Below, piece by piece: positions 7,596 through 11,952 of a DNA stretch of 64,000 nucleotides. Each line of letters opens with the position of its first letter. Position 1 is the first letter of the stretch. The stretch is from Amphiscolops sp. MND2022. Its lineage: Eukaryota. The stretch lies in assembly GCA_964187785.1 (NCBI GenBank), contig OZ076409.1, forward strand, positions 59,088,001 to 59,152,000, in the 5' to 3' direction. The position numbers and the translations under genes were made by a program. Below the pieces are notes generated by a model, which saw only the letters and a list, made by a program, of their open reading frames with translations, did no database searches and was not told where the DNA came from.

Positions 7596-10500
7596 CTAGT
7601 TTTTCTTGCCTTTACAAGAATTGCTCTTTACTTTAGCAGAAACTGAATCAGTACGTGCTTCAGCACATTGTGAGACTTCTAGACTAACACTGCTAAGAGT
7701 TGGATGTGGAGAAGGAGAACTATTTGCACTACTACGGCGGCTTACACTTGGGGTAGTACTTCTAGAACTTACAGGAGGTCTTTCAATACGAAGGACAGAT
7801 TTCCGATAACCAGTTTCCTGTTTGCCCAAAAGAGTAGATCGCTTCTGTCCATTTCCCTTGAGAAAGTTCCAAATGGAGAATTTCTTGTCAGTCAATAGAT
7901 CAGTTCCTCGGCCAAGGAGTCGAAAAACACGAGAGATCGATTTAGGGTCTCGGTATAACCTTGAAATGTGCGGAATTGTCTGGTATGATGCCTGTAGACT
8001 CCACAAACAGGATTGGATAGCTTCAATTCCATTCTCTAAACTGGTAAGAGGGACGATGAAAGGACTTGGCATTTTGATTAAAGGGATAAACACAAACAGG
8101 AGTACCTGTACAGTTGATACAGTTCGGGACGACATTGAATCTCGTAATGAGACGATACGTAATGCACCCAATCCTCGTAATCAGGGACAGGACAATCACG
8201 AAGTTTTGTAACGAAGGATCGATACTGGCTTGTAGCTTTTGTTTTATCACTAGCTGAAATACACCCTCTGGCAACGAAATAGGACGCTAATTTTTCAATC
8301 GAAGCAGTATATTGCTCCTCCGAACCCTCAAATATGACACTAGGGTCGAATGATGATAACCCCCTAATCAGGTCAGATTTGATCACTTCGTGACTCAGCA
8401 GCAATTTACAAAACGCCTTGCAGAAGGCGATTGATTGATCAACAAATTTGCCTGGACGAGGCAATTTACTGGCAACAACAAGATTGTAAAAGTCTTCATT
8501 AAGTATAAATTCGCTTGATGTTTTGTAGGGCAGCCAATTTTGGTCCAAATCTAAATGAAGATAACCATCCCAAATAGAAATGCTTCCAAGCGTATCATCT
8601 GGAAGGAGGTTTTGGAGCTGGCTATATACAAAAATTGCAAACTGGTTGTATTGCCGAAAGCCCCTTCAACTCCTTGTTTGACTTCGTGGAAGGCCGAGTT
8701 ATCTGAAACAAAAGGAAAATAGTGACACTCTAAAACGCGTTATGATCTCAACCAGCACGCAGAGATAAAACATACGTCATTATACAATTCGATTTGTGAC
8801 GATCATACGTCATAATACAAATTCAACAATGTGTCTATACGTCATTCAGCGGATCTAGGTGTGACGATTATACGTCACTATGCGGAATTGCAAATTGGAT
8901 TATACGTCATCCAGCGGACCGAGATGTGACGATTATACGTCACCATGCAGAATTGCAAAATGGATTATACGTCATTATGCGGAATTGCAAATCGGACTAT
9001 ACGTCACTGTGCGGAGTTGCAAAATGGACTATACGGCATCATCCGGAATCCACAGAACGATTATACGTCATCATGCGGAATCCACAGAACGATTATACGT
9101 CATTATGCGGAAATCACTGAACGTACTGAAAAGATTAACCGAGCCAGACGATTAACAGCCACCATACTCTTACAGCTTAAATAGGTGTAAATAAAAGTAC
9201 GGAAATAAAGTGGACCATGTTCGTTATGAAAACAGTGGGATTAATCGGACCATAGTAAAAAGGGAAATGAAAATTCTACTGGGGACTTGGATGTTGTAGC
9301 AAAGACCGTTTCAAGAAAATGGAAATGACTAACAGTGGTCTATTGTGCATCTGATAATCAAAAGCCGGGCCAAATAAGTGGTGTCGAAGCGAAAACACTC
9401 GTCCAAAGTGTTGGGCTGAAACAGAAATGAGAACTATACGAAAAGAAGGAAGGCTAGTCTACAACAGACAGAAATATAATAACCTCTCTCATGTGAAATC
9501 TGTATTCTGGCAGTCTGGCCACTTTATTTAGGTGTTCACGCACCCGGTCCCAATTCTTGGATAAATCCTCTATGATGATGGACGCTTCGCTCAAAGAATA
9601 CTCAAGCCGAGTTATACACTAAAATGAAGAAGACCAGTAAAGATCAAACTCAAGTGTATTTGTACCGAACACAATATGATATGCTACATACTTTGTGTAG
9701 TGTTGGCAAGTTATGTACCCAGTCTCGATCCAATGCTGTACGTAGTTTCATTAAAAGGAAATCTAGAATCGTACGAAAATCATGTCGCTCAATGATTTGA
9801 GCGGTAGGTAGGGCAAGACTGGATTCAAAATCGGACGGTTCATAAGTACTGGTAATGAATGGCCTTTTTGCACCAGGTAAATTAGTCCGGAGACAATCAG
9901 CTAATTTTTCATCAAAACTAATTAAGGAAACTCAGGAAGGAGCAGTATCAAAAAGACTGATGAACGAGACCAGTAAAGCAAGAATTTTGCGAGGAAGTAA
10001 CATTCCTCTTGGGGAACTGCCCAGGCACACACGGTGGAGCACGTTTCCAGACCAGAATGATAAAATGATGAATGAAGTGGTAACAGAGTGTTGTAGTGAT
10101 AACGAATACAATCCAGATTCGGAGATCTTGTCAGTACAGTAACTCATTAGTTCTCTGAACATATGTACCAGGATGGCCTGTTAACACGCACAAAGTAAAA
10201 AAGAGCTTACTCAATTAAATGAAAATGCGCGACTAAAGATTAAAACACTTCATAAAAGTCACAATGCGAAAGCGAATGTCCCCAATTCAATAGTTAAAAT
10301 AAAATACTAACATATAGGCGTTGATCGCTCCAATTCTGGGTAGACAACACGTTGGAAGAAGTCAGTCTGGATACTTCTCCATAGATCCCAGAAAGGTTGT
10401 CTACGTGTCCCCCATTTCTGAGCCCGAACTCTAAAATGGTTATTTGGAACAAAACCTTCTCAGTAGGACTGGATGCAATGTTTGTAGCAGGGACTGCAGA

Positions 10501-11952
10501 TTGTCCCACTAGAGGATGTCGAGAGTCTAATTGGGGCGCTATTGGATAAGTGTCCTTTGCAGTTTTCTTCGCGTTTTGGAGGGCTGTTCCAAGGATCTCT
10601 TTACAGTCTTTATCAAACAAAGGCATGCCGGTTATCTCCATACGGATTCGATGCTCTTTGATTAGGTGTGAGTCAGTCCGATAATGGGAGACCAGTTCCA
10701 AGGGTCCTCGACTCATTAGGGATAATTCCACACGACACACCCTACACCACCACTTATAGGGAGTTTTATCGGCATCGAGTGGACCAGTAGCAGAAAATTG
10801 CAACACTGGGTGTTTTTCTAACATTCCAACTGTGAGGGAGTATTTAGGTCTCCTTCTCTTACCATAGTGCGTGCTAGTTCCTCCTGACTAGACGTAGTGA
10901 CCATTACAGGGTCCGCTATAATGTCAACGACGGACAAGGATAGAGGTTGATCTAGATTTGCTCCATCTCCTGTAAGTAAATCCGGTGGGATTCGCCCCAA
11001 GAAGTTATTGATGGTCGTTAACTCTCTTCGGGTAATGCTGAACTGAGTATACTCTCCTGGAAATTCCTGCATTGTCACTTCTTGTTCATTGGATACTTGG
11101 ATCTCCTCCCCCTCTGCCCCAAATATGTCGCCTTGGCTGAGTAACATAGGGTTCTCATGCGAAGCCCTGTCGAAGCCGGTGGGTGAGAGATATTGATTAA
11201 ACTGTTGTGGAGGAGTTTGGGTTACTTGTAGGGGAGGATATGTTTCTCCCATAATCTCTTGTGATCTATTTTCAACGTTGTCTCCGCTGTAATTATGATC
11301 AAGGCCCACTTGGGAAAGGGGCGTGCATTGACTGGCGGAAGCCCCAACTTCAGTCCTTTCTTCCTGCTCGTGATCAGCGGGAAATATCTCACATGTAAAG
11401 TGTGGAGCAGCAGTCACAACCTTTATCCCTTCATCAATCTGCAAAGCAGGGGTGACAGGGGATTCCAAAGAGCCTTGGGGTTGAACTAAATTTGGAGATG
11501 CTACTTCTAACAAAGTCAGAGTTTTCTTTGGTGTTTCTGCTGTAGGATTCCGTACTGAAGTGAGTTCAGCTAAAACAATGATCGATTACTTGAAGAAAAG
11601 AGGAATTGATCACGCAAACGAGTTCGTTCTAAATTAACTGAAACCGGACGCGGTAACAGGAAATGAAAAGAACGGATGTCGTTTAAAGTTAGAAACGGAA
11701 ACGTTTCAAAAAAAATCTGAATTTGTTTAGTAATCCATAGCTAGACATTTTCAATTCGTAAGCCTGGCCAGCTTCGAAACCCTACTAAACTCCCTAAACC
11801 AAATCAAGTCTAAACAAGAACATACTGAACTTACTTTGTGTGGTTTCCAGGGGTAGATCATCAGCCCAAAATTCATCGCGCTGTAGCTTCAACAGCTCCT
11901 TTCTAGTCAGTCCGGTACTAGAATTCCCAGGCTCTCCTGGTTTAGAGTCCAT
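7596..11952 (-). pseudogene. Six-exon antisense accessory gene of the Gypsy element: zinc finger plus hAT-transposase-like protein; lesions in this copy
   Basis: Exons 11952-11835, 11569-10312, 10177-9692, 9618-9484, 9415-9334, 8702-~7596 with GT-AG introns whose phases match; WWCRVC...HYRTDSH finger; frameshifts near 10820, 8650, 8100 and a stop at 9932. Confidence 0.72.
8765..9112. repeat. Degenerate ~31-32 bp tandem array (GATTATACGTCATTATGCGGAAT...), about 11 units, within last intron of antisense gene
   Basis: Periodic TATACGTCA and ATGCGG cores seen directly. Confidence 0.9.

Follow-up and report, generated by a model that had tools for sequence, protein, structure and literature searches.

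The 64,000-nt window analyzed here (Amphiscolops sp. MND2022; assembly GCA_964187785.1, contig OZ076409.1, positions 59,088,001 to 59,152,000) contains a Gypsy long terminal repeat (LTR) retrotransposon of 15,834 nt, in a host genome of 1.07 Gb, and inside this element lies a multi-exon gene that runs antisense to gag and pol. To judge from its genomic copies, this antisense gene is a real six-exon gene and a fixed part of a Gypsy family. It very probably began as a hAT transposase gene that became integrated in the element and has been retained there by selection.

The element is laid out in the order LTR, gag, pol, antisense gene, a sense open reading frame (ORF) of about 350 amino acids (aa), and LTR (Table 1). 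The two LTRs measure 1,521 nt each, are 96.4% identical, have TGT..ACA ends, and are bordered on both sides by a CATGT target duplication. Pfam matches on the window element to zf-CCHC (the gag knuckle), aspartyl protease, RT_RNaseH, and the integrase core rve follow in Gypsy order and, together with the LTR pair and its duplication, bear out the Gypsy context of the original prediction. The core of the reverse transcriptase (RT) is interrupted by a frameshift in the window copy, and the Gypsy assignment stands without a separate RT score. Young copies have a gag of about 560 aa. All 15 elements compared have TGT..ACA ends and a TGG following the LTR, and 13 of the 15 have a perfect 5-bp target duplication; these duplications are of the ordinary Gypsy type and have no obvious common sequence.

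The antisense gene is found in this setting throughout the family. Genome searches with DNA and protein sequences gave 256, 6,807, and 6,677 first-look candidates, and every candidate that was scored proved to be a match (40/40, 125/125, and 125/125, respectively); among the matches listed, there are at least 169 distinct places with exon 6 besides that of the window. Gypsy pol lies upstream of the antisense gene, on the opposite strand, in all 26 homologues that were fully fetched with 20 to 30 kb of context and that were picked to span the subfamilies. Integrase adjoins exon 6 at 28 of 30 shorter loci, which are partly the same copies as the 26. Looking in the reverse direction, we found a listed exon 6 at the expected place for at least 76 of the best 150 integrase matches; three of the matches without one were spot-checked and all three had exon 6, the remaining 71 of the 150 lying outside this check. 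Several elements have LTRs that are >99% identical, indicating that the family has been active recently.

Conservation of splice sites and reading frame in other copies, which the original prediction had proposed as a check, is apparent throughout. Introns 2 to 5 have GT..AG borders at homologous positions in all 14 modelled copies (one donor was placed by hand, 4 nt off the homologous place), as does intron 1 in eight of nine. Five of the nine fully modelled copies have an open frame of 1,078 to 1,096 aa in which every intron is GT..AG, a count that leaves out copies with a misplaced boundary (one exon-1 end and one exon-3 donor). The exceptions met in a look at 23 copies are in aged copies: three donors are altered (one to GC and two to TT), and frameshifts have displaced two anchors. 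Furthermore, even an element that has diverged to about 80% identity in pol retains all five introns at the same places. On these comparisons, the splice pattern is far beyond chance.

Exons and introns evolve very differently. Among the 55 pairs formed by 11 copies, the nonsynonymous distance (dN) is 0.07 to 0.26, the proportion of differing synonymous sites (pS) is 0.80 to 0.91 and thus saturated, and amino acid identity is 66 to 91%, whereas introns 2 to 4 are 48 to 51% identical, compared with 47 to 50% for shuffled sequences. The ratio of dN to synonymous distance (dS) is computable for only 0 to 20 of the 55 pairs per region because dS is saturated. The suggested comparison of exons with introns thus came out in favor of the gene, with the exons under purifying selection and introns 2 to 4 diverged to the level of shuffles.

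The window copy itself is degenerate. All five donors and all five acceptors stand where the original prediction had placed them, with the letters given; the phases (1,0,0,0,1) and the length of roughly 1,100 codons hold for the family, as the five open models attest, but not as one open frame in the window copy, where reading across the junctions is broken by frameshifts near 10876, 8664, and 8085 and by a stop near 9934. That this copy is broken had been overlooked, as had the hAT transposase origin of the protein, the motif arrays in three places, and the second, sense-strand accessory ORF described below. None of the six closest relatives is open throughout either; their exon boundaries are kept, save for one copy with deletions over the exon 3-4 boundary and one altered donor. 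Intron 1 contains two short motifs on the minus strand (11774-11760 and 11653-11638) that are conserved in all subfamilies viewed. One is near-palindromic and the other ends in an acceptor-like TTTCAG; they could possibly be regulatory sites or an alternative acceptor.

From the conserved structure we infer that the antisense gene is separately transcribed and spliced. The broken state of the window copy and of all six of its closest relatives, along with the fact that splicing is predicted rather than directly observed, would also suit a single nested insertion of a hAT, or ORFs that arose by chance and are linked by fortuitous splice signals. Such an origin is exceedingly improbable, given that 26 of 26 homologues are in the same context behind pol, that the LTR ends and 5-bp duplications recur as described, that protein and splice sites are conserved while synonymous sites are saturated, and that the five intron positions persist at the pol divergence given above. 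The one-off insertion named in the original prediction as its possible refutation is therefore contradicted.

The identity of the protein was approached through more distant relatives. A neighboring element with a pol about 50% identical has a distant homologue, likewise antisense behind pol. The sister clade to which this homologue belongs (loci L141 to L169), in which all 124 scored candidates were matches, has few introns: an acceptor is followed by a single exon of about 790 codons that extends from zinc finger to stop, so that introns 2 to 5 are missing. Since this region is a single exon, a model could be made from unspliced sequence. The AlphaFold2 model of the intron-poor clade, built on a 28-row alignment, has a predicted local distance difference test score (pLDDT) of 80. 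With this model, Hermes fills the top 11 Foldseek rows (best E 3.1e-4, probability 1.00), and VIA places Hermes first (Z 12.3, root mean square deviation 5.4, 401 residues), the next row having a Z of 6.7 and other DDE enzymes lying below. The RNase-H-like core with a large helical insertion that characterizes Hermes is present in the model, and the window clade is linked to it by homology: a profile made from the sister clade only matched five of five window-clade products (E 1e-38 to 7e-37, profile positions about 30 to 750), and shuffled and reversed controls scored <0 bits. Atlas neighbors of the sister clade that have a family are all hAT-type, with scores of ≤0.82, and were taken as a lead only; exon 6 was also tried in Atlas as a lead, gave scores of ≤0.82 without hAT neighbors, and was set aside as noise. 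The zinc ligands C38, C41, H58, and H64 are conserved in ≥90% of 34 rows and present in five of five window-clade products, although Pfam zf-BED gave no score on the antisense-gene protein despite its CCHH finger.

Catalytic residues have not been kept in the same way. The key residues of Hermes are D180, D248, R318, W319, and E572 (PMC6027215). Their positions were placed by hand from predicted strands, motifs, and Hermes letters, E572 being the least certain. At D180, D occurs in one and E in three of 36 rows, most of which have Q or R; at D248, 29 of 38 rows have G and five have D; at W319, the residue is F or L, never W; and at E572, no acidic column is common to both clades. A TRL in exon 4 was considered as the hAT TRW motif and ruled out by its spacing to the conserved W. 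The protein thus appears, on the predicted structure, to have a hAT fold without the active site, and it lacks the D180, D248, E572, R318, and W319 set that would make it an active hAT transposase.

It is very unlikely that the protein is a still-active transposase, with the element or an internal module also moving as DNA. The whole fold is retained, the sister clade has a conserved acidic residue two places from E572, and three exon-6 matches stand in tandem at a 3.6-kb spacing (G000:C3:32523286-32531390), all of which such activity would explain. However, there is no conserved D at strands 1 and 4, all checked elements end in TGT..ACA with 5-bp duplications in 13 of 15, and integrase lies beside 28 of 30 exon-6 loci. 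There are 79 inverted repeats of ≥40 nt, and the 25 longest include no terminal inverted repeats (TIRs) of the gene's own; shorter TIRs were outside this search. Another tandem arrangement, of three matches at a 13.6-kb spacing, occurs in the intron-poor clade (G000:C10:2574438-2602666).

Several results weigh against a hAT origin. Neither the single exons nor the 28 alignment members have a Pfam hAT match (PF05699 or others), the sole DDE_Tnp_4 match being one at E 0.15 in one of the 28 members. Sequence and profile searches of the PDB gave no match, and hhalign against 66 BED-type hATs was not significant (probability 1.4, E 0.036). Only one Foldseek row falls below E 0.001, and the VIA Z of 12.3 is slightly below the tool's cautionary threshold for helical proteins. 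The modelled protein is that of the sister clade and not of the window gene, and the catalytic positions were anchored by hand rather than from a printed structural alignment. A search of longer proteins with exon 6 yielded matches for 0 of 3,118 candidates. One further hhalign comparison was partly circular, as one side contained matches found with the other, and was not used as support.

The antisense gene and the pol backbone do not appear to share one history. Trees of integrase and exon 6 for 19 copies disagree, with near-identical integrases accompanied by very different exons 6 and the reverse, although the exon-6 tree is weakened by saturation and long branches. Exon-6 distances correlate at 0.09 to 0.29 with those of integrase, at 0.13 to 0.16 with those of the LTR, and at 0.46 to 0.62 with those of exon 2. 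This pattern points to module exchange between co-packaged genomes.

Splicing does not remove introns from the genomic RNA when they lie antisense to it, and for this reason those of the antisense gene would survive retrotransposition. The protein library gave 841 matches at an E of 0.001 or better, which are proteins without genomic context. Among the best 150 of these 841, all five distant N-terminal fragments end at profile positions 212 to 222, near intron 2 of the window clade, and five middle fragments start at 211 to 232, four of them ending at 404 to 407, near intron 4. This suggests an early origin for introns 2 and 4, with subsequent loss in the intron-poor clade. With one exon of about 790 codons where the window clade has five, the intron-poor clade is a natural case of intron loss or gain in a retrotransposon.

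Three noncoding regions of the element are densely occupied by the motif TATRCG. The first 700 nt of the LTR have 5 to 9 sites (12/12 elements), the 900 nt upstream of the antisense gene have 6 to 16 (12/12), and intron 5 has 6 to 18 (11/11). Nearly all of these sites are on the plus strand, the other strand having at most 2, and exons and introns 2 to 4 have 0 or 1. The expectation of 0.5 to 0.7 per region understates chance, because the motif was chosen from the same elements in which it was counted. The real evidence for the motif is its recurrence at three fixed places across subfamilies whose introns are otherwise unalignable. The window clade therefore has the dense arrays of short motifs in noncoding regions that accompany VANC and TnpA. 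Boxes resembling CCAAT (found by eye) are located at about 12215-12260 on the minus strand, between the upstream tandem array and the ATG.

The explanation that we favor, which has perhaps an even chance of being right as a whole, is that a captured, dead hAT transposase is kept as a DNA-binding regulator like VANC or TnpA. A Gypsy ancestor would have taken up a hAT transposase gene with its introns, in the orientation opposite to gag-pol. The captured gene would have lost its catalytic residues but not the zinc finger, the DNA-binding helices, or any of the overall fold, with selection retaining it as an accessory gene. Its protein would be made from its own antisense promoter by transcription from the 12- to 13-kb region, would enter the nucleus, and would bind the TATRCG clusters of the LTR, of intron 5, and of the region preceding its own gene, in the way that subterminal repeats are recognized by hAT transposases. 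The bound protein would keep the element transcribed or unsilenced in trans, as VANC or TnpA does. A regulatory role is suggested because the BED finger of Hermes binds short subterminal repeats (PMC10368747), because VANC binds motif arrays in introns, intergenic regions, and terminal regions (PMC5735166), and because dead transposases serve as regulators, TnpA itself having arisen from a transposase (bioRxiv 10.64898/2026.08.24.746577). It is possible, though we would hold it with somewhat less than even confidence, that an animal LTR retrotransposon has in this way domesticated a DNA transposase of another class to serve it as a sequence-specific activator or anti-silencing factor, keeping the donor's introns antisense, building CpG-containing binding arrays in LTR, intron, and internal promoter, and swapping the module between pol backbones.

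Other observations speak against such a regulator. TATRCG is not clustered in either of two distant elements that keep the gene, and no replacement clustered motif stood out in those two or in 29 flanking sequences upstream of the gene in the intron-poor clade. In contrast to VANC and its targets, TATRCG is unchanged across the subfamilies of the gene, and LTR and gene distances are barely correlated (Spearman). Together with the strictly one-stranded orientation of the arrays and the free swapping of the gene between pol backbones, their absence from the two distant elements would accord with arrays that are sites for host factors or signals in the genomic RNA, the hAT-derived protein doing other work, such as binding a host silencing protein or another sequence. 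We regard this as unlikely, as the arrays flank and interrupt exactly the antisense gene, in the manner of VANC targets, and the zinc finger is conserved. The position of a motif cluster near both ends of the cDNA, the intact transposase fold with its basic C-terminal tail, and the nuclear role proposed for plant antisense ORFs (PMC7264820) could instead mean that the dead transposase acts at integration, binding the LTR arrays of the cDNA and tethering the preintegration complex to chromatin or carrying it into the nucleus. However, it is within the element, in intron 5 and ahead of the gene, that the arrays are densest, and the target duplications are ordinary, so that this role, too, seems improbable.

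A regulator could also act in the opposite direction, as a repressor or decoy that limits its own element or poisons resident hAT transposases through mixed oligomers. Bona fide hATs abound in the genome (all 150 PF05699 matches that were scored lay above the cutoff), and hAT transposases oligomerize (PMC10368747). The protein is, however, only about 12% identical to the resident BED-type hATs tested, and many young copies, with LTRs >99% identical, keep the gene intact; a helper of spread therefore fits better than a repressor, which we consider distinctly unlikely.

The second accessory ORF (ORF2) is 343 to 396 aa from stop to stop in 12 other copies and consists of a low-complexity N-terminal part followed by a domain with a conserved CxxCG and two helices, for which AlphaFold2 gave a pLDDT of 57. 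It had no Pfam match in the portion scanned and was not detected in the element of the intron-poor clade. The LTRs are coding at both ends of the element in this and other subfamilies: gag starts about 570 nt before the end of the LTR (889-1456 in the window), and the ORF2 stop lies about 44 nt inside the 3' LTR (14248-14291).

Table 1. Features of the Gypsy element and its antisense gene, in window coordinates
Feature	Position	Strand	Description
5' LTR	1..1456, start 66 nt left of window	+	TGT..ACA; target duplication CATGT
TATRCG cluster in LTR	276..454	+	9 sites
gag	889..2563	+	ORF starts within LTR and continues through primer-binding site; frameshifted in window copy; zf-CCHC
Primer-binding-site-like TGG stretch	1457..1472	+	Immediately 3' of 5' LTR
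pol	2863..7412	+	Gypsy order (protease, RT, RNase H, integrase); broken in window copy
Exon 6	7596..8702	-	Second half of helical insertion, final elements of RNase-H-like core, additional helices at C terminus, basic tail; frameshifts (see text)
Intron 5	8703..9333	-	631 nt; ~32-nt tandem array
TATRCG array in intron 5	8836-9104	+	12 sites in ~32-nt tandem array
Exon 5	9334..9415	-	82 nt; 91% mean aa identity across subfamilies
Intron 4	9416..9483	-	68 nt
Exon 4	9484..9618	-	135 nt; matches hAT RW..W helix region, RW replaced
Intron 3	9619..9691	-	73 nt
Exon 3	9692..10177	-	486 nt; strands 1-4 of RNase-H-like core, with other residues at the first two catalytic Asp positions; stop in window copy (see text)
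Intron 2	10178..10311	-	134 nt; 75-147 nt in other subfamilies
Exon 2	10312..11569	-	Rapidly evolving N-terminal part of low complexity, followed by CCHH zinc finger and a helical domain; frameshift (see text)
Intron 1	11570..11834	-	265 nt; two short conserved internal motifs
Exon 1, coding part	11835..11952	-	ATG at 11952
32-nt tandem array	12305..12587	+	15 TATRCG sites; separates sense ORF from the upstream side of antisense gene; putative promoter region for both
ORF2	13314..14291	+	~350 aa, single exon, Cys-containing C-terminal domain, stop in 3' LTR; broken in window copy; start judged by eye
3' LTR	14248..15768	+	96.4% identical to 5' LTR; motif cluster 14589-14762; first ~189 gag codons

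Elsewhere in the window, a remnant of a related element (30440-32932) contains an ORF2 homologue (31107-31301; E 5e-5); the hAT-like gene was not detected in this remnant, in front of which there is an assembly gap (29209-29408). On the minus strand at 19793-23698 are ORFs of 976 and 297 aa that we take to resemble ORF2 and ORF1 of a LINE, respectively. A large decayed inverted duplication, with arms 78 to 94% complementary, occupies 34600-64000, and ORF fragments within it appear to resemble the polymerase, integrase, and capsid genes of Polinton/Maverick elements.

Plant and fungal Gypsy elements are known to carry antisense ORFs between pol and the 3' LTR (PMC7264820; PMC11963269), and a review describes these ORFs as lacking similarity to other transposable elements and states their origin and function as open questions (PMC7264820). 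The TRP28 ORFs of Retand/Tat, gene23 of maize Grande, RIRE2, and Boty are antisense at the same place, are family-wide, and have tandem arrays nearby, and a promoter of its own has been shown for the Grande ORF (PMC7264820; PMC11963269). The gene described here differs from these in its five spliceosomal introns, its full hAT fold, and its apparently animal host, and it has no Pfam match to PF04195 (TRP28); the word "intron" is absent from the main text of the Retand paper (PMC11963269). Antisense transcription units also occur in the LTR elements human T-cell leukemia virus (HTLV) and Drosophila micropia, but the HTLV promoter is in the 3' LTR, the micropia RNAs are noncoding, and neither unit is transposase derived (PMC7264820). 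A review of giant eukaryotic transposable elements (PMC6431247) and a 2026 preprint (bioRxiv 10.64898/2026.08.24.746577) do not contain the words "antisense" and "retrotransposon," "Gypsy," or "LTR," respectively. A hAT-derived antisense gene in an LTR element was not described in the literature searched, which did not extend to Repbase, Dfam, and most subscription papers.

With hAT transposases such as Hermes and Ac and with ZBED-type genes, the protein has in common the CCHH finger, the helical DNA-binding part, and the RNase-H-like core with its large helical insertion. It differs from them in the lack of conserved DDE and RW residues and of a Pfam hAT match and in its extra N-terminal low-complexity region and C-terminal helices. 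Its gene, moreover, is housed in an LTR element that has 5-bp duplications, and what maintains the gene is a retrotransposon rather than a host or a TIR element. For an antisense extra ORF, the case supplies both an origin, namely, a hAT transposase, and a candidate target, namely, a motif of six bases that recurs at three fixed places. Together with the hundreds of copies available for natural comparison, these make the function of the gene directly testable. It also provides a system for following intron loss and gain in an element that passes through RNA.

The closest functional parallel may be with VANC of Arabidopsis VANDAL and TnpA of Spm, which are likewise accessory proteins encoded by transposable elements beside dense short-motif arrays in intron, intergenic, and terminal regions, TnpA being likewise transposase derived. 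Those systems are plant DNA transposons with a demonstrated function, whereas here the carrier is a retrotransposon, the donor belongs to another class of transposable element, the function is deduced, and the motif is common to the subfamilies rather than diverging among them. The idea that dead transposases become regulators, so far applied to host genes and plant DNA transposons, would thereby come to include a retrotransposon, and, if the proposed mechanism is true, the antisense gene would represent an animal, retrotransposon-borne counterpart of VANC and TnpA and an antisense extra ORF of known origin.

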